Shown piece by piece: positions 26,657-35,392 of a stretch of 64,000 bases of DNA. Source of the stretch: Escherichia coli (GTDB taxonomy: Bacteria; Pseudomonadota; Gammaproteobacteria; Enterobacterales; Enterobacteriaceae); NCBI RefSeq assembly GCF_045037415.1, contig NZ_CP173438.1; one strand, given 5' to 3'. Each line of letters starts with the position of its first letter. Positions within the stretch are counted from its first letter, which is position 1. The translations under genes were made by a program, and so were the position numbers. A model generated the notes under the pieces. It was given only the letters and a program-made list of their open reading frames with translations, was not told where the DNA came from and did no database searches.

Positions 26657-27562
26657 ATGTTCATCTCAGACGAAACGCTTCGTGTTATTCATCTGGTCGC
26701 CAGACACCAGAGCATTACCACCGCAGCCGAGCAGTTAAATAAAGTCCCTTCCGCCATCAGTTACACCATCAAGAAAGCGGAAGAGAGCCTGGGCGTTGAA
26801 CTGTTCATTCGTAAGGGACGCTATATTGAATTATCGCCAGCGGGAAGTTACTTCATCGAACATAGCAAAACTATTCTTGGCGACCTGGAAGCATTAAAGC
26901 GCAACACAGTGCTGATTCACGATGGTATTGAGCGTGAACTGACAATTGCGGTAAACAATATTATTCCTGGTGATTTGCTGGTGGCATTTATTCGAGATTT
27001 TGAACGGCAATTCACATCAACAACACTGACGGTAGATCTTGAGGTATACAACGGCTGCTGGGATGCGCTGTACAGTAAGCGTGCTGATCTGGTCTACGGT
27101 GCTCCTCATGCAGTACCAAGCAGTGAAGGCATCATTAGCGAACCGGTCGGACAAATGGAATGGGATTTTGTCGTCAGCCCACTCCACCCACTGGCAGCGA
27201 AGCGGCATCCATTAGAAAACAGTGAATTGCGTCATTATCCAGCGGTTTGTATCCGCGATACCTCCGTTAACTTCCCCCCGATGCAAGCCTGGTTGTTGGA
27301 AGGACAAAAACCCATTTTTGTTCCTGACTTCGCTACGGCAATCGCCTTAATAGAACAAAACGTCGGTATTGGTTATATTCCACATCATCTGGCATTACCG
27401 TTATTGAACAGCGGTAAATTGCTTAAAAAGCCAATGCGCGAACATAAACACGCCACCAAGTTATTTCTTGCCGCTCGTTCCGATGGTATGGGCAAAGCCT
27501 GTCAGTGGTGCATAGAATATTTAAGAAACCAGCAATTAATGACACGATTTGTATTTAATTGA
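26657..27562 (+). CDS. LysR-family transcriptional regulator
   Basis: 301 aa; N-terminal HTH (TAAEQLNKVPSAISYTIKKAEESLGVELF) plus LysR substrate-binding domain. Confidence 0.8.
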   Translation: MFISDETLRVIHLVARHQSITTAAEQLNKVPSAISYTIKKAEESLGVELFIRKGRYIELSPAGSYFIEHSKTILGDLEALKRNTVLIHDGIERELTIAVNNIIPGDLLVAFIRDFERQFTSTTLTVDLEVYNGCWDALYSKRADLVYGAPHAVPSSEGIISEPVGQMEWDFVVSPLHPLAAKRHPLENSELRHYPAVCIRDTSVNFPPMQAWLLEGQKPIFVPDFATAIALIEQNVGIGYIPHHLALPLLNSGKLLKKPMREHKHATKLFLAARSDGMGKACQWCIEYLRNQQLMTRFVFN

Positions 27563-27689
27563 CAATACAATGATAAAAATATAAGTCTTGCTTTAATTAG
27601 AGCGCCCGTTTAAATTATTTTTGTGCAGTTGACGTAATTCATGAAAATTAACCGGTCTGTTAATCATTACGTTCACTGCACACCTTCAT

Positions 27690-27761
27690 TTTTTCACACC
27701 TATCCACGCCTGAAAACTATGTTATAATCAGCACTTTCTGTCAGAATGAAATTTACTAATT
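27690..27761 (+). promoter_or_regulatory. Putative promoter of the RpiR-family gene (extended -10 TGTTATAAT)
   Basis: tgttataat about 35 bp upstream of the ATG in an AT-rich intergenic region. Confidence 0.3.
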
Positions 27762-28607
27762 ATGAATAACATAACCGTAAAAAGTCTGATTCAAAGCAAT
27801 TACCCTACACTGCATCAGGCGGAAAAAAAGGTCGCTGACTATATTCTTAGCCACGCACATGAAGTCGTGAACTATAGTGTCACTGAACTATCAGAAAAAA
27901 GCCATGCCAGTGAAGCGACTATCGTACGCACCTGTAAGAAATTAGGTTATCAGGGTTATTACCATTTAAAAATTGCATTAGCAAAAGAAGTCATTAATCC
28001 TGACAATAGCTATCCTGAAAATACCGACTTCAGCGATATAACATCTTTGGCAACCTTTTTATTAAAAAAACAGGCCGAAGATTTAATACAATCAACGCAA
28101 TTTTTTAATGCCGACGTGCTTGAGTCCATTCTCAAACTACTTGCTAATTGCGATACTATTTTCTTTTTTGCTGCCGGAAATTCAAACCCACTGGCCGTTT
28201 ATAGTGCTTATAAATTCAGCCAACTCGGATTAAAAACCGTTGTTCACGTCAGCCCGGAAATGCAAATTAATGCGGCATATTCTATGGGGAAACGCGACCT
28301 GGCGATTGGTATTTCTAACTCTGGCAGCACCAACTTAATGGTCGATATCTTTAAAGTGGTGAAAGAGCGCGGTGCCAAATCCGTTTGTATCACTAACTAT
28401 ATTAAATCTCCGTTATCAAAACTCTCCACCCATCAACTCAATACCGCGGTCAGCGATAAAATCTTCTTTGAAGCCTTCGACTCCACTCGCGTTCCGGCAA
28501 TGGGCGTTATTGATATGCTGGTGCTGTTGTTTATGTATAAAAACAAGGCGCATTACGAGAAATACCGCACCCGTGAAGAGTTTCTTGGCTCCCGTTTCAA
28601 GGGGTAA
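27762..28607 (+). CDS. RpiR/MurR-family transcriptional regulator (HTH_6 + SIS domain)
   Basis: 281 aa; N-terminal RpiR-type HTH (LSEKSHASEATIVRTCKKLGYQGY) and C-terminal SIS sugar-phosphate-binding domain. Confidence 0.8.
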   Translation: MNNITVKSLIQSNYPTLHQAEKKVADYILSHAHEVVNYSVTELSEKSHASEATIVRTCKKLGYQGYYHLKIALAKEVINPDNSYPENTDFSDITSLATFLLKKQAEDLIQSTQFFNADVLESILKLLANCDTIFFFAAGNSNPLAVYSAYKFSQLGLKTVVHVSPEMQINAAYSMGKRDLAIGISNSGSTNLMVDIFKVVKERGAKSVCITNYIKSPLSKLSTHQLNTAVSDKIFFEAFDSTRVPAMGVIDMLVLLFMYKNKAHYEKYRTREEFLGSRFKG

Positions 28608-28629
28608 AAGGTCATCCTTTCACCCCTTG
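28598..28629. terminator. Hairpin between convergent RpiR-family and transketolase genes
   Basis: caaggggtaaaagg-tcat-cctttcaccccttg inverted repeat; no clean U-tract on either strand. Confidence 0.35.
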
Positions 28630-28636
28630 TGCAGGT

Positions 28637-30634
28637 TTAGCTGTTCAGTAGCTCACGCGCCTGCGCCAGGACATTTTCCGGCGTAAAACCAAAGTGTTTG
28701 AACAACACATTCGCCGGAGCAGACTCACCAAAGCTCGTCATGCCGATCACTTTACCGTCCAGGCCCACGTAGCGTTCCCAGAATCCGGCGATGCTGGCTT
28801 CTACCGCCAGACGTTTGCGTACAGCTTTTGGCAATACCGACTCTTTGTACGCCGCATCCTGATTATCGAAACGCTCGGTACACGGCATGGAAACCACGCG
28901 AACTTTACGCCCTTCTTCCGTTAACGCTTTTGCGGCGCTGACCACTAACTCAATCTCTGAACCCGCAGAAATGAGGATCATCTCAGGCTGACCGTCACAA
29001 TCACTCAGTACATAACCACCACGCGCAATCTCTGCCAACTGTGCAGCGGTGCGCGGCTGTTGCGCCAGAGGTTGGCGCGTTAATACCAACGACGTTGGGC
29101 CATCTTTGCGCTCAATCGCCTGTTGCCAGGCCACCGCCACTTCCACCTGATCGCAACCGCGCCAGGTTTCCATATTCGGCGTCAGACGCAGCGACGCCAG
29201 TTGCTCAACGGGCTGATGTGTCGGGCCGTCTTCGCCCAGGCCGATGGTATCGTGGGTATAAACAAACACCGAGCGGATCTTCATCAGCGCCGCCATGCGC
29301 AGTGCATTACGCGCATATTCCATAAACATCAGGAAAGTACCGCCGTAAGGGATAAACCCACCATGCAGCGCAAGACCGTTCATGATGGCCGACATACCAA
29401 ATTCACGCACGCCATAGGAGATGTAATTCCCCGCCGGATTTTCTCCGGTGAAATCAACCGATTTCTGATGGCGAGTCAGGTTAGAGGGCGACAAGTCCGC
29501 CGAGCCGCCCATCAGTTCCGGCAGCATATCTGCGAAGTGATTGAGGCATTTCTGGCTAACCTGACGGGTTGCCAGCGCCGCCGGATGGGATTGCAGATCG
29601 TGCACATATTTCTGCATATTCTCGACCCAGCCAGCAGGCAAATCACCCTTCATGCGACGAGTAAACTCCGCCGCCAGTTCCGGCCACTGCTTCGCGTAGT
29701 CGGCAAACAGTGCATCCCATTCCTGTTGAACCTGCGCGCCTTTCTCGGTCGCATCCCATTCGGCATAAATTTCACCAGGAATTTCGAAAGGGGCATACGG
29801 CCATTGCAGACGTTCACGCACCAGCGCCACTTCATCTGCACCCAGCGCCGAGCCGTGGCAATCGTGGCTGTTGGCTTTATTTGGCGAACCAAAACCGATA
29901 ATCGTTTTGCAGCACAGCAGACTGGGCTTATCCGTGACGCTTTTCGCTTCACGCACCGCAGCATCTACCGCTTCTGGATCGTGACCATCAACGCCTTCAA
30001 TGACATGCCAGCCGTAGGCACGAAAACGGGCAGCCGTATCTTCAGCGAACCAGCCTTCTACGTGACCATCGATCGAAATACCGTTATCGTCCCAGATAGC
30101 AATCAGATTGCCGAGCTTCAGCGTTCCTGCAAGACCACAGGCCTCGTGGGAGATCCCTTCCATCAGACAGCCATCACCCAAAAATAACCATGTGTGATGA
30201 TCAACAATATTAAAGCCCGGTTTGTTAAATTCTGCCGCCAGCGCCTTCTCCGCAATCGCCATCCCCACCGCATTAGCTACGCCCTGCCCCAACGGGCCGG
30301 TGGTGGTTTCAACACCCGGCGTATAACCATATTCTGGATGACCCGGCGTGCGGGAGTGGAGCTGACGAAAGTCGCGAATATCATCCATCGACAGGTCGTA
30401 GCCTGTAAGATGCAGCAAAGCGTAAATCAACATGGAGCCGTGACCGTTCGACTGAACATAGCGGTCGCGGTTAAACCACTGCGGATTTTTTGGGTTATGA
30501 CGCAGGTGACGACGCCAGACCACTTCGGCAATATCCGCCATCCCCATCGGCGCGCCCGGATGACCGGAGTTCGCTTTCTGGATCGCATCAACACTTAACA
30601 TTCGGATGGCATTAGCCAGTAATTGTGAATTCAT
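28637..30634 (-). CDS. Transketolase (full-length, additional paralogue of TktA/TktB)
   Basis: 665 aa; collinear with TktA over the whole length ([15 protein letters not shown], ThDP-binding [20 protein letters not shown]) but clearly divergent from both TktA and TktB as I recall them. Confidence 0.9.
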
Positions 30635-30684
30635 ACTTCAGCTCTCTCTGTCTGGCGGGCTGAAACCAGCCCGCTAATCTCGAA

Positions 30685-32193
30685 TTAGTTAGCACAGGCC
30701 ACTGTCATTTCTGTCGGGCGCGGTCTGCTCATTACGGTTTTGATTTCGTCGCGCAGGATTTGCGATTTGCCGCCAAATATCACCTGTACACCGCCATCAC
30801 CCAGTTTCACTAAACCCGCAGCCCCCAACTCCTTCAGCCGTTTTTCATTCACTTTCTTATCGTCTACCAGCGCCAGCCTTAGGCGTGTTGCGCAGGCATC
30901 CACATCTTCGATATTGTCGAAACCACCTACTGCTTCGATGATTTGGTATGGACGTTCTTCGCGCGTTAATGTGGTTGCAACGGCAATCTCTTCATCCTCA
31001 CGCCCCGGTGTTTTCAGATTCAACTTGCGGATCAGTACCCGAAATACGGTGTAGTAAATCGCTGCATAGCCCGCGCCTGCCAGGAACACCAGATACCACG
31101 GCGTGCGGTTTGGCATAACGCCATTCAGTACGAAATCAATAAGACCGCCAGCAAAAGGATGACCAATGTGCACATTCAGGATGTTCATCAGCACAAATGA
31201 AGTGGCATATAAGAAGATGTGAATGATGTAGAGAACCGGCGCTGCAAACAAAAATGCATATTCCAGCGGCTCCGTAATCCCGGTAACAAATGTGGTCAGC
31301 GCACCGGAGAGTAAAAGGCCTTTAATCAGCGCCTTACGTTCCGGTTTTGCTTCCTGATACATCGCCAACGCGGCGGCAGGTAACGCAAACATCATGATCG
31401 GGAAACGACCTGTCATAAACAGCCCCGCCGTCAACGGAGCACCGTCGCGCAATTGGGCAAAGAACACCGGAATATCGCCCGTCACCAGTTGCCCGGATTT
31501 GGTCATGTAGTCGCCAAAGTTGTAATAAAACGGCACGTTCCAGATATGATGCAGGCCAAAAGGAATCAGCGAACGTTCGCCAACGGCGTAAATAAAGGCC
31601 GCGAAGTTCGCGTTATGTCCACTGGTCACCAGCGTTGAAAGCGACGCCAGACCTTTTTGTACCGGTATCCACAGCCACGGCAATAAATAGCCGACAATAA
31701 TTGCCGCCACAGCCGTAATAATCGGTACAAAGCGTTTTCCACCGAAGAAACCAAGAAACTGAGGCAATTCAATATTGTGGAAGCGGGTATAGAGCAGATA
31801 AACAAAGATGGCGACAATCAGACCGCCAAACACTCCCGTTTGTAACGTCGGTACCCCGAGGATCATCGCATAATCACCGTTACTGGCTGCAACGGACTCC
31901 GCAGTAATGCCAAGTTGCGTTCCCATCGTGGCATTCATGATCATGTAACTGATAATCGCTGAAAGTGATGAAGAACCATCACCTGTCAGGCCAATCACAA
32001 TACCGACACAAAACAGCAAAGGAAGGTTGGCGAAAATCAGGCCGCCGCAATTCGCCAGCAGCTCAATGTTAAATGAAATCCCGATGGCTAAAATCAAACC
32101 CGCCGCCGGAAGAATGGCGATTGGTAACATCAGAGCAGAAGAAAATTTCTGCAACTTCTTGAAGTTAAACAAGGATGTTATTTTTTTGCTCAT
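30685..32193 (-). CDS. PTS system glucose-family EIICB component
   Basis: 502 aa; EIIC membrane domain with GITEPLEY motif and C-terminal EIIB domain with the phospho-cysteine motif CATRLR. Confidence 0.85.
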   Translation of the reverse strand: MSKKITSLFNFKKLQKFSSALMLPIAILPAAGLILAIGISFNIELLANCGGLIFANLPLLFCVGIVIGLTGDGSSSLSAIISYMIMNATMGTQLGITAESVAASNGDYAMILGVPTLQTGVFGGLIVAIFVYLLYTRFHNIELPQFLGFFGGKRFVPIITAVAAIIVGYLLPWLWIPVQKGLASLSTLVTSGHNANFAAFIYAVGERSLIPFGLHHIWNVPFYYNFGDYMTKSGQLVTGDIPVFFAQLRDGAPLTAGLFMTGRFPIMMFALPAAALAMYQEAKPERKALIKGLLLSGALTTFVTGITEPLEYAFLFAAPVLYIIHIFLYATSFVLMNILNVHIGHPFAGGLIDFVLNGVMPNRTPWYLVFLAGAGYAAIYYTVFRVLIRKLNLKTPGREDEEIAVATTLTREERPYQIIEAVGGFDNIEDVDACATRLRLALVDDKKVNEKRLKELGAAGLVKLGDGGVQVIFGGKSQILRDEIKTVMSRPRPTEMTVACAN

Positions 32194-32234
32194 TTTTATT
32201 CTCCTGTAGGGTATCGAGCAAATAACGGCGACGA

Positions 32235-32804
32235 CTATTCCAGATTGGCGTGGCGCTTAAACAGTTCACTTTCCGGCGCACCACTTTCAGCAGCCATCTT
32301 CATCACTAATGCATCGGCAATCACCAGCAAAGCTTGCTCATACAACGACGCCATCGGCTGTGCCGAGCGGAAAACAGAATCTTTTTGATTTTTGGAAGGG
32401 GCATTGATTTGCACGATGACGTCGACAAACTCGGTGATAGTGGCGTGTCGATTCGTGGTTAACACCGCCACAGCGCCGCCGAGCTGACGTGCTTTTTTCG
32501 CCAGCGCCACCAGTTGTGCTGTCTCACCGGAAGCAGAAGAAACGATAAACAGATCGCCAGGCCCAAAGTTCGGCGTAATGGTTTCCGTCAGGAAGTAAAC
32601 CTCTTTTCCCATATGCATCAGGCGCATGGTGAAGGCTTTCATAGAAAAACCGGCGCGTCCCAGGCCATAGCAGAAAACGCGCTGGCTTTGCTGAATAGTG
32701 TCGATCAATTTGGTGCAGTCATCCTCACGGATAGAGTCCTTAACGAAGGTTAATTCATTGATGATCTCAGTGATGTACAGCTTTGCGTCCATTTCACACC
32801 TCAT
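32235..32804 (-). CDS. 6-phospho-3-hexuloisomerase-like SIS-domain protein (HxlB/PHI family)
   Basis: ~185 aa single SIS domain; MRLMHMG, QPMASLYEQ and C-terminal HANLE closely resemble B. subtilis HxlB. The true start may be the second Met (MDAKLYI, 12 bp in). Confidence 0.75.
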   Translation of the reverse strand: MRCEMDAKLYITEIINELTFVKDSIREDDCTKLIDTIQQSQRVFCYGLGRAGFSMKAFTMRLMHMGKEVYFLTETITPNFGPGDLFIVSSASGETAQLVALAKKARQLGGAVAVLTTNRHATITEFVDVIVQINAPSKNQKDSVFRSAQPMASLYEQALLVIADALVMKMAAESGAPESELFKRHANLE

Positions 32805-32829
32805 GAAATAATTTTCTCAAACACAAAAT

Positions 32830-32850
32830 CTCATGAAATTTTATTTCATT
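32830..32850. promoter_or_regulatory. Perfect palindrome TGAAAT-TTT-ATTTCA upstream of the PHI-PTS-transketolase operon (candidate operator)
   Basis: tgaaattttatttca about 30 bp upstream of the SIS gene start; related TGAAAT/ATTTCA copies near 32793-32810, 32865 and 32990. Confidence 0.3.
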
Positions 32851-33091
32851 CCAATGCATCAGTATGAAATGTGAAGCTAGTCACAAGAAAGATCATAGGT
32901 TGATATGTTTTTCATTAAAAAACATAGAGATATCAAGTAATTTTTAATATGTGATGGAGAGGCAGATAGAAAAAATGGCGGAAATGACGAAATTTATTTC
33001 ATGAGAAGGGAATAAAGAAGATTTTCTTAAACAGGGTATGAACTGATATCTGGAATGGTTTACGCAGTATGCTGGGAAGACGTCGCTGTAA

Positions 33092-33122
33092 TGAGAAAAG
33101 ACCGGGTGGTATTACCACCCGG
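33092..33122 (-). terminator. Rho-independent terminator downstream of metE
   Basis: ccgggtggt-att-accacccgg stem with a T-rich tract on the minus strand just after the metE stop. Confidence 0.5.
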
Positions 33123-33130
33123 TTTGGATT

Positions 33131-35392
33131 TTACCCCCGACGCAAATTCTGCGCCGCCTGCACCATGTTCGCCAGTGCCGCGCGGGTTTCTGGCCAGCCG
33201 CGCGTTTTCAGGCCACAGTCCGGGTTGACCCACAGACGCTCTGCCGGAATGCGTTTTGCCGCTTTCTTCAGCAAGGCTTCAATCCATTCCACGCTCGGTA
33301 CGTTTGGCGAGTGAATGTCATAGACGCCAGGACCGATTTCATTTGGATAATCAAACTCTTCAAACGACTCCAGCAACTCCATGTCGGAACGCGAGGTTTC
33401 GATGGTGATGACGTCTGCGTCCAACGCCGCAATCGAATCCATAATGTCGTTGAACTCGCAGTAACACATGTGAGTGTGGATTTGTGTGTCATCTTTCGCC
33501 ACGGCGGCGTTGATACGGAAAGCCTCCACGCCCCACTGGAGATAGGCATCCCAGTCGCTGCGACGCAGTGGTAAACCTTCGCGCAATGCCGGTTCGTCAA
33601 TCTGAATGATGCCAATTCCAGCGGCTTCCAGATCGGCCACTTCATCACGCAGTGCCAGCGCAATCTGTTTGGCGATGGTTTCACGGCTGACATCTTCACG
33701 CGGGAACGACCAGCAGAGAATAGTCACCGGGCCAGTCAACATCCCTTTCACCGGTTTATCAGTCAGGGATTGCGCATATTTTGCCCACTCCACGGTAATC
33801 GGTGCCGGGCGGCTAACGTCACCAATAACAATCGGTGGCTTCACGCAGCGGGAACCGTAGCTCTGTACCCAACCGTTTTGCGTAAAGACAAAGCCATCCA
33901 GATGCTCGCCAAAGTATTCCACCATGTCATTACGCTCGGCCTCGCCATGTACCAGCACATCCAGTCCCAAACGTTCCTGCTCAACAATGGCCTGCTTGAT
34001 ATGTTCCGCAATGCCCGTGCGGTAGTTATTGGCGTCGATATTACCCTTTTTAAAATCCAGACGCAGGGTACGAATCTCCGTGGTTTGCGGGAAGGAACCA
34101 ATCGTGGTGGTCGGCCACGCGGGCAGTTTAAAACGCGCACGCTGGGCTTCAGCACGCACTTCATAGACATTCGCACGCTGACTGTCCTGGGCGGTGATCG
34201 CCGCCAGACGCTTTTCTACTGCCGGATTATGTACACGAGTAGAGTGACGACGCGCCTGAATCGGAGCGCTCCACTCTGCCAGAGCTGCCGTATCACCACT
34301 GTTCAGCGCATCGCGCAGCAATGCCAGTTCATGACATTTTTGCAAGGCGAAGGCAAACCAGCTTTTCACTTCTGCATCAAGACGCGTTTCCACGCTCAGG
34401 TCGATGGGGCTGTGCAGCAGTGAGCAGGAAGATGCCACCCACAAATCACGTTTGCCGACAATGTCCTTAATTTGCGCATATTTCTCGGTAAGATCGGCGC
34501 GCCAGACGTTACGACCATTGATAAGACCCGCAGACAGCAGCCAGTCAGAAGGCAGGCGCTTGTGCAGTTCAGCAACGTCATCTTTACCATGTACAAGATC
34601 GACATGCAGACCCTGAACAGGCAGCGCAGTAATCGTGTCGAGGTTTGGCGTTACGCCTTCAAAATAGGTGGTCAGCAGCAGTTTCACCTGGCCCTGGAGC
34701 GCGTCGTAAGCGGGTTTGTATGCATCCAGCCACGCCTGCGGCAGTTCCAGCACTAGCGCGGGTTCGTCGATCTGTACCCACTCAATGCCGCGTTTCGCTA
34801 GTTCTGCCAGCACTTGCTGATAAACCGGCAGAATGTCGTTCAGCAGGCTCAGGCGATCAAACTGTTCACCTTTCACTTTACCCAGCCACAGGTAGGTAAC
34901 CGGCCCCAGCAGCACAGGTTTCACCTTGTGGCCCAGCGCCAGCGCCTCGTCCACTTCCTCCAGCAGCTGCGTCCAGGTCAGTTTGAACTGTTGGCCTTTA
35001 ACGAACTCCGGCACCATGTAGTGATAGTTGGTGTTAAACCATTTGGTCATTTCCGCTGCCGCCGCAGGTTCGCCAGTCGGTGCACGTCCACGACCAATAC
35101 GGAACAGGGTATCGATATCTACCGAACCATCGTTGTTCTGATGACGTTGCGGAACATTACCCAGCAGCAGACTGGTTGTCAGTACATGATCGTACCAGGC
35201 AAAATCGCCCACCGGCAGCAGGTCGATACCCGCTTGCTTTTGTTGATCCCAGTGACGAGCACGCAATTCACGCCCTACCGCCAGCAGTTCTTCACGCGTG
35301 GAGTTCCCCGCCCAATAACTCTCTTGCGCTTTTTTCAGCTCGCGACGCAGGCCAACGCGAGGGAAACCGAGGGTGTGATTAAGAATTGTCAT
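33131..35392 (-). CDS. metE: Cobalamin-independent methionine synthase
   Basis: 753 aa, full-length match to MetE ([23 protein letters not shown]...). Confidence 0.95.

Follow-up and report, generated by a model that had tools for sequence, protein, structure and literature searches.

A hairpin with covarying arms upstream of rpiR in the tkt1 genomic island of Escherichia coli is probably a small regulatory element of rpiR

INTRODUCTION

Stem-loops at the 5′ terminus of a transcript are expected to affect its stability or processing, and stabilizing stem-loops of this kind exist in enterobacterial mRNAs, for example the hairpin in the ompA 5′ UTR. The inverted repeat described here, which lies between a LysR-type gene and an rpiR-family gene of Escherichia coli, resembles these stabilizers in giving a stable sense-strand hairpin upstream of a coding region, a few nucleotides from a possible transcription start. 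It differs from them in that this start is predicted only, in that the hairpin is followed by a strongly conserved promoter-like box and in that the loop sequence, which simple stabilizers do not need, is conserved. With intrinsic terminators it shares its position downstream of a co-directional gene and, in E. coli, a nearby T-run, but not the 61-nt span, the large structured interior, the conserved loop or the linkage to the downstream gene. REP/BIME elements are likewise imperfect extragenic palindromes between co-directional genes, whereas the present repeat is strictly single copy in 1,135 genomes. Like the RAT antiterminator hairpins of the BglG/LicT family, it is a conserved-sequence hairpin, predicted here as RNA, beside PTS sugar genes, and the hairpin type of one related locus (L084) shares GGATTGT.AC.G with what we take to be the RAT 5′ half. 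This resemblance is missing in the hairpins of E. coli and of a further locus (L091) and, unlike for RAT, no terminator overlaps the hairpin, the module lacks a PRD/CAT antiterminator gene and Rfam gives no match.

Footprinted sites of RpiR-family regulators are short pseudo-palindromes, TTGT-N7-8-ACAA for HexR and TGTAGT/ACTACA, of 15 or 28 bp, for RccR (PMC5489143). The repeat is also palindromic, lies upstream of an rpiR-family gene and has TGTAAY-like words in its centre; unlike the HexR and RccR operators, it has 17-nt arms lying 27–39 nt apart that vary between lineages despite an identical helix-turn-helix (HTH), and a better operator candidate is present at hxlB.

We know of nothing on the regulation of the tkt1 island, in which the repeat lies. 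The gene tkt1 was first identified in a virulence screen. The 16-kb island that carries it shows strong enrichment in B2-group extraintestinal pathogenic E. coli (ExPEC) and was presented as one island, in the metE–ysgA interval, in a paper that makes no mention of an inverted repeat (PMC3349570). The present analysis provides three handles on its regulation: the ‘16-kb island’ is composite, its rpiR-tkt-ptsG-hxlB part being 5.6 kb long with defined ends; the block upstream of rpiR, with its covarying hairpin, conserved apex and invariant extended −10 box, is under constraint; and the catabolic operon carries, besides a CRP-like site, a 6-3-6 palindrome of the RpiR type. The hairpin, which is probably a small regulatory element of rpiR and not a LysR terminator or a scar of module joining, is thereby a testable handle on a virulence-associated island, its function itself being putative.

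RESULTS AND DISCUSSION

Genomic setting

The window, i.e. the whole 64,000-nt stretch of E. coli DNA analysed here, was 100 % identical to many E. coli chromosomes. In strain SK1144 the stretch sits between ysgA and metE, with a cysteine hydrolase-fdrA-arcC-permease-LysR block followed by rpiR (+ strand) and then by tkt, a ptsG-like gene and hxlB (all − strand); it is the tkt1 island of ExPEC, in the ysgA–metE interval. Homology of strain REL606 to the window stops seven codons short of the LysR stop, at 27540, and restarts at 33135, at the metE stop, with about 110 bp of other sequence in place of 27541–33134. The match also ends at window position 27540 (query positions 1–941) in about 420 further E. 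coli genomes and many plasmids, the plasmid version of the LysR block having the same end nucleotide as REL606, and the whole LysR–rpiR stretch was present in 1,134 of 5,426 complete E. coli genomes. The homology gap from 27540 to 33135 in genomes with LysR alone shows that the tkt1 island is composite, with rpiR-tkt-ptsG-hxlB (27541–33134) as a separate 5.6-kb segment. The first-pass annotation had placed the repeat in a spacer between two accessory modules, and this was borne out, the two being separable.

As the segment boundary lies inside the last LysR codons, the C-terminus of the B2-type LysR differs from that of REL606; it reads ...RNQQLMTRFVFN and is three residues longer, the REL606 protein ending in ...RNPQLIFCS. 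The fdrA-arcC-permease-LysR block was also seen, IS-flanked and at about 94 % identity, at 127 plasmid places on large E. coli plasmids (for example pEC5931-1, L003, 1–6948), and seems to be independently mobile.

The inverted repeat

A repeat search placed the inverted repeat between the LysR and rpiR genes, at the place and between the genes that the first-pass annotation had named (Table 1). Its arms, each of 17 nt and 27 nt apart, were complementary at 15 of 17 positions (88 %), the two mismatches (TG/GA) being adjacent. Searching the 64-kb window with a 17-mer arm and up to three mismatches returned the two arms only (0.12 expected), and the exact apex motif TAACCGGTCTG was found once within the window. 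The spacer between the arms holds a smaller palindrome, ATTAAC-cggtct-GTTAAT (27647–27664). Folded as RNA, the + strand of the E. coli hairpin gave −21.4 kcal/mol (z = −4.8), which none of 200 shuffled sequences equalled, and the − strand about −23.4 to −23.7 kcal/mol (z = −4.0). Across E. coli genomes the arm sequences were unchanged except for one T>C at the inner end of the 5′ arm; the other variants seen at the hairpin were one T>C in the loop and a length difference (T6/T7) in the downstream T-run.

Table 1. Features of the rpiR upstream region and of the segment that carries it (window positions)
Feature	Position	Strand	Remarks
LysR-type gene	26657–27562	+	
Left boundary of rpiR-tkt-ptsG-hxlB segment	27540..27541		Within LysR 3′ end; homology with LysR-only genomes stops
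Whole hairpin element, 61 nt	27622..27682	+	Repeat search, folding, covariance model R1; same span at all orthologous loci
5′ arm, TGTGCAGTTGACGTAAT	27622..27638	+	Outer helix (positions 1–11), covarying between lineages
Conserved apex motif, TAACCGGTCTG, core CG[G/T]TCTG	27649..27659	+	Position 28 of the 61-nt element
3′ arm, ATTACGTTCACTGCACA	27666..27682	+	Repeat search, alignment, covariation
T6 run (T7 in many strains)	27689..27694	+	7 nt past the stem; specific to E. coli, other lineages without it
Extended −10-like box, TGTTATAAT	27720..27728	+	Putative proximal rpiR promoter
rpiR-family regulator gene	27762..28607	+	HTH_6 and SIS domains; accompanied by the hairpin
Right boundary of rpiR-tkt-ptsG-hxlB segment	33134..33135		At metE stop

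Linkage to rpiR

Of 5,426 complete E. coli genomes, 1,135 have the repeat, each at one place, and these include every genome that carries both blocks. It was missing from the approximately 420 genomes with LysR alone, which have a different hairpin. A single copy in each of these 1,135 genomes rules out a repeated element of the REP, BIME or MITE type, a possibility that the original observation had raised as one that would count against it. Elsewhere, the hairpin accompanies rpiR in what we count as three other upstream contexts; the contexts found upstream of hairpin and rpiR were a MOFRL glycerate kinase operon, an MFS transporter gene with a canonical terminator and, in E. coli, the LysR gene. 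Since it is absent from LysR-only genomes and follows rpiR elsewhere, the hairpin is not a feature of LysR.

The repeat had also been proposed as a remnant of the event that joined the modules, to be checked in genomes with only one of them. In those genomes the boundaries fall where homology ends and resumes and not at the repeat, which lies 81 bp inside the rpiR segment, measured from the left boundary. Neither the arm search nor the covariance model described below found related sequence at the right end of the segment. Lying off the boundary and lacking a right-end counterpart, the repeat is not a junction mark. A junction scar, a terminal repeat of module joining or a mobile-element end would be in keeping with the closeness of the repeat, within 81 bp, to the segment boundary, but is highly improbable and already largely refuted, also because no related sequence was found elsewhere in the window and because the distance from the hairpin to the rpiR promoter is fixed in genomes without any junction.

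Conservation of the rpiR upstream region

Close relatives of RpiR were rare: a search of 100,044 species representatives gave one contig at 79 % identity, the next best being at 41 %, and a large protein collection yielded further orthologues at 67–80 % identity. Those at 79–80 % came, by source names, from Raoultella, Klebsiella pneumoniae, K. aerogenes, Salmonella enterica and Scandinavium; the others were those of K. grimontii (about 79 %), of uncultured relatives (77 and 73 %) and of Serratia ficaria (67 %). One contig, CACSKA010000003.1 (L005/L137), bears the GTDB title ‘Chryseobacterium sp. 18061’ yet has an enterobacterial locus, and NCBI names its RpiR Scandinavium; the Chryseobacterium title seems to stem from mis-assignment or contamination. 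The L084-type unit had no match in PLSDB and so gave no sign of being carried on plasmids, and a metagenome pattern scan for hairpin variants gave 30 pattern matches, one of which was a true relative.

In all lineages with RpiR orthologues of 75–80 % identity, a hairpin of exactly 61 nt was found at the corresponding place. The block is ordered as hairpin, spacer of 34–37 nt, TGTTATAAT, 33 nt and ATG, with TGTTATAAT starting 42 nt before the rpiR ATG in five lineages (the window; L005, 5953; L084, 5959; L091, 350; L088, 5959). The 11-nt apex motif TAACCGGTCTG (variants TAATCGTTCTG and TAATCGGTCTG) begins 68–71 nt upstream of TGTTATAAT and always at the same hairpin position. The arm sequences were near-completely different by lineage (TGTGCAGTTGACGTAAT in E. 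coli, GGCGCGAAAAT in the Klebsiella type and GGTGTTGGAGTGCATATA in a third type), and despite this divergence the arms were complementary within each lineage. The 73 % orthologue has kept TGTTATAAT and no comparable hairpin was found upstream of it, from which it follows that the hairpin is dispensable for rpiR as such; neither hairpin nor TGTTATAAT was found with the 67 % orthologues. The RpiR HTH was invariant in all orthologues compared.

In the S. ficaria locus (L090, 5693–6000), a SgrR-oxidoreductase-isomerase-hydrolase-glycerate kinase operon is followed by the rpiR orthologue without tkt-ptsG-hxlB downstream, and by eye the intergenic region has a GC-rich stem and a T-run in place of hairpin and box.

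Conservation upstream of rpiR was not uniform. At five loci of Klebsiella, Raoultella, Salmonella and Scandinavium, all-sequence identity was 25–75 % in the upstream part of the region between glycerate kinase and rpiR, and 85–100 % from about 9 nt before the hairpin through the ATG. The pairwise identity profile over the whole 11-kb locus is a mosaic without a step at the hairpin, which rules out a recombination edge there in the Klebsiella group; the conservation of the hairpin block therefore reflects local constraint.

Covariation and strand preference

As all elements are 61 nt long, they could be aligned without gaps, and exact 61-nt spans were used because a MAFFT alignment that included the flanks put a spurious gap into the 5′ arm. 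In the outer helix of 11 bp, 92.4 % of cells formed standard pairs, against 33–55 % when the 3′ partner was slid by 1–3 columns, a control that favours the tested structure, which was read off the same sequences. Six of the 11 pairs change on both sides, and the covariation score of 0.636, which rests on three to four independent lineages, was reached by none of 500 shuffles. RNAalifold independently predicted the same outer helix, plus two short inner helices. The pairing register of the inner half differs in each lineage, so that the conserved parts are the outer helix and the apex sequence and not the detailed fold. The pairing thus seems, from comparison of homologues, to be kept by compensatory changes, as in structured cis-acting RNAs.

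The + strand folded better than the − strand by 3–12 kcal/mol in four sequence types (L005, −23.5 versus −19.8; L084, −23.5 versus −20.4; L101, −23.0 versus −16.4; L091, −23.8 versus −12.0 kcal/mol), because several pairs are G·T and become A·C on the other strand; in E. coli the order is reversed, the − strand being better by about 2 kcal/mol. Two polymorphisms of the outer stem, A7>G in the Salmonella type (L101) and A51>G in K. grimontii (L132), both give G·U on the + strand. A covariance model (R1) built from the ungapped 61-nt alignment scored the window site at 75.3 bits on the + strand and 14.1 bits on the − strand.

Template-switch (quasi-palindrome) mutation can keep arms complementary without selection. 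A neutral palindrome without function, kept by descent and hairpin-templated mutation, would fit with the small number of lineages, the unconserved inner pairing and the 73 and 67 % orthologues that have no hairpin. It is nevertheless very unlikely, given that the non-coding block from the hairpin on is far better conserved than the adjacent intergenic DNA, that the apex is kept between lineages whose arms have fully diverged and that a diverged second copy, described next, has the same layout.

Other copies and known families

With filters off, R1 found no second site in the window, and it found nothing in approximately 1 Mb of loci around distant RpiR relatives; on further fetched loci of RpiR orthologues it found the expected site in every one. 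A second hairpin site was found on a K. grimontii-like scaffold (L131, 12233–12294, − strand; 28.7 bits, E about 1e-4). This copy is a 62-nt hairpin, GGCGCAGGG...ATCGGTCTG...CCTGCGCC, which shares with the rpiR element the TATAA 5′ flank, the GGCGC/GCGCC base and the apex core, has new compensating stem bases and shows a strong strand bias (−23.0 versus −14.9 kcal/mol). Upstream of it are a PTS EIIC-GAT gene and a terminator-like hairpin; its non-coding flank gave no match, so that its original neighbours were not recovered. A Tn3-family resolvase remnant about 90 nt away might point to a mobile-element end, but homology to the plasmid Tn3 element stops inside the resolvase and R1 finds nothing in that element, and a Tn3 transposon end was rejected.

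Searches of Rfam with the window, L084 and L091 gave no relevant match at E-values up to 10, which rules out a known RNA family for these three. The hairpin is a structured element upstream of a regulator gene, lacks an Rfam entry, is narrowly distributed among Enterobacteriaceae and may have one paralogue. Other candidates were also discarded. A small ORF of 28 codons spans the hairpin in E. coli; L005 and L084 lack a start codon there, and the peptides agree only in the residues that the DNA motif itself encodes. Pairing of the loop in trans with the hxlB-ptsG-tkt or rpiR mRNA would involve complementary 7-mers, which occur at non-homologous places only. Resemblances of the centre to IHF, CRP, sigma-54, attC and GntR/FadR-type sites, judged by eye, were in no case conserved across lineages.

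Comparison with terminators

The first-pass annotation had offered a terminator for the LysR gene as one explanation, to be checked by RNA folding. Folding did reveal a stable hairpin, but not the anatomy of a terminator. Intrinsic terminators have a short GC-rich stem with a 3–8-nt loop and a U-tract 0–2 nt after the stem, whereas the hairpin spans 61 nt with an interior of 27–39 nt; the first T-run lies 7 nt past the stem in E. coli, and the L084 type and L091 have GCCTTCCAATG and TTTAAATT, respectively, at that place. A consensus terminator scan called no + strand terminator in 27400–27900 or in L084 5680–6010. A terminator of LysR would be expected to travel with that gene, and genomes with LysR alone do not have the element. 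The proposal of a LysR terminator was therefore not upheld.

A more general barrier or terminator, acting on transcription from whichever gene lies upstream (LysR in E. coli), halting upstream transcripts or marking where their 3′ ends lie, and shielding the rpiR promoter from read-through, was also considered. The upstream gene is co-directional in every context, there is no canonical terminator between LysR or MOFRL and rpiR in E. coli and L084, a T6–7 run follows the stem in E. coli, and S. ficaria, which has the same upstream operon without the hairpin, has by eye a GC-rich stem and T-run there. Such a role is unlikely all the same: the T-run is distant from the stem in E. coli and wanting in the L084 type, the stem-loop is far larger than intrinsic terminators and draws no call from the scan, a conserved loop sequence is not expected for a terminator, LysR-only genomes use a different hairpin, and in L091/L139, as at the second copy in L131, a terminator-like hairpin is already present just upstream of the element.

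Comparison with RpiR operators

An operator had been another explanation offered. With regard to the arms it does not hold: they differ completely by lineage while the RpiR HTH is invariant, and the 17-nt arms are therefore not an RpiR operator. Nor, with such arms 27 nt apart, does the repeat have the form of the 15–28 bp pseudo-palindromes footprinted for the family (PMC5489143), and half-sites conserved among orthologues were not seen, the arms being unrelated and the 11-nt centre alone being kept. Only this conserved centre could still be a DNA site.

The centre (approximately 27645–27665, core CGGTCTG) would then be a double-stranded site, some 80 bp before the transcription start that TGTTATAAT predicts, bound by RpiR or by another transcription factor controlling the rpiR promoter, with the arms either kept complementary by quasi-palindrome template switching or aiding the site through cruciform extrusion. 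In keeping with such a site, no sequence blocks other than the apex motif and TGTTATAAT are kept upstream of rpiR across lineages, and the spacing of these two is near-fixed; TGTAAY/CGTAAT-like words in the region resemble HexR/RccR half-sites; and, the RpiR recognition helix being invariant, its operator should also be conserved. However, the distance from apex to −10 box differs by 3–4 bp between E. coli and the other lineages, which would place the site on another helical face, and the strand-specific G·T bias and the six compensated pairs are left unexplained. The motif is, moreover, missing from the co-regulated hxlB promoter: the hxlB-ptsG-tkt promoter region (32793–33134) contains no copy of the arms or apex. 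We consider a DNA site of this kind somewhat unlikely; if the hairpin does act as DNA, its centre defines the site of a further regulator of the island.

What the hxlB-ptsG-tkt promoter region does contain, upstream of hxlB (32235–32792), is a perfect CRP-type TGTGA-N6-TCACA and a palindrome TGAAAT-AAA-ATTTCA, of the 6-3-6 form of footprinted RpiR-family sites, at 32834–32848 and 32870–32885 on the − strand. Both are kept in the Klebsiella and Scandinavium loci. The 6-3-6 palindrome is likely to be the true RpiR operator, with catabolite control by the CRP-like site.

A proposed sense-strand stem-loop upstream of rpiR

The interpretation that we tentatively prefer is that the repeat encodes a 61-nt stem-loop in sense-strand RNA, as the 5′-most part of a conserved rpiR regulatory block; the transcription, strand and mechanism of the hairpin are what we infer from sequence. 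Its position would be the 5′ end, or close to it, of transcripts that reach rpiR from a short distance upstream, started at a weak distal promoter or, in E. coli, reading through from LysR. There the stem-loop would govern the stability, processing or fate of these transcripts, with the apical CGGUCUG as a recognition site for some factor. The proximal promoter at TGTTATAAT would yield rpiR mRNA without the hairpin.

In L091/L139 and at the second copy in L131, the terminator-like hairpin upstream means that a sense RNA of the element would need its own promoter. Distal promoter-like hexamers that would place a start within a few nucleotides of the stem base were seen, of which only TTGAAA-17-AATTAT of L091 passed the promoter scan; weak candidates recognized by eye were TTTATA-17-TATAAA in L084, CATAAT at the second copy and TTGCTT-17-TAAATT in E. 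coli. The weakness of these distal promoters counts against a sense-strand RNA, as do the slightly better folding of the − strand in E. coli and the 73 % orthologue without the hairpin. A literature search found no transcript map for an island-carrying strain.

Acting as RNA, the hairpin would be a candidate for a new Rfam motif with a narrow and horizontally mobile distribution. It is rather doubtful, though conceivable, that it represents the first of a small, so far undescribed family of enterobacterial cis-regulatory RNAs, in which a 61–62-nt leader with an apical CGGUCUG read by a dedicated factor would control the regulators of horizontally acquired PTS sugar islands, including the ExPEC tkt1 island, the L131 copy being a second member.

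Other observations at the locus

In one K. grimontii genome (L133, 1–2755), the end of a Mu-like prophage (GemA, Mor, Gp27) truncates the oxidoreductase gene that opens the upstream operon. In the window, rpiR (+ strand) and tkt (− strand) are convergent, with 29 nt between their stop codons (28608–28636) and no obvious terminator there, and transcription of the catabolic operon may continue into rpiR in the antisense direction. At the other end of the inserted segment, a hairpin ACCGGGTGG-tatta-CCACCCGGT with a T-rich run on the metE strand lies inside it (33101–33123), so that island DNA supplies the metE terminator of island strains, in place of the hairpin that serves REL606.
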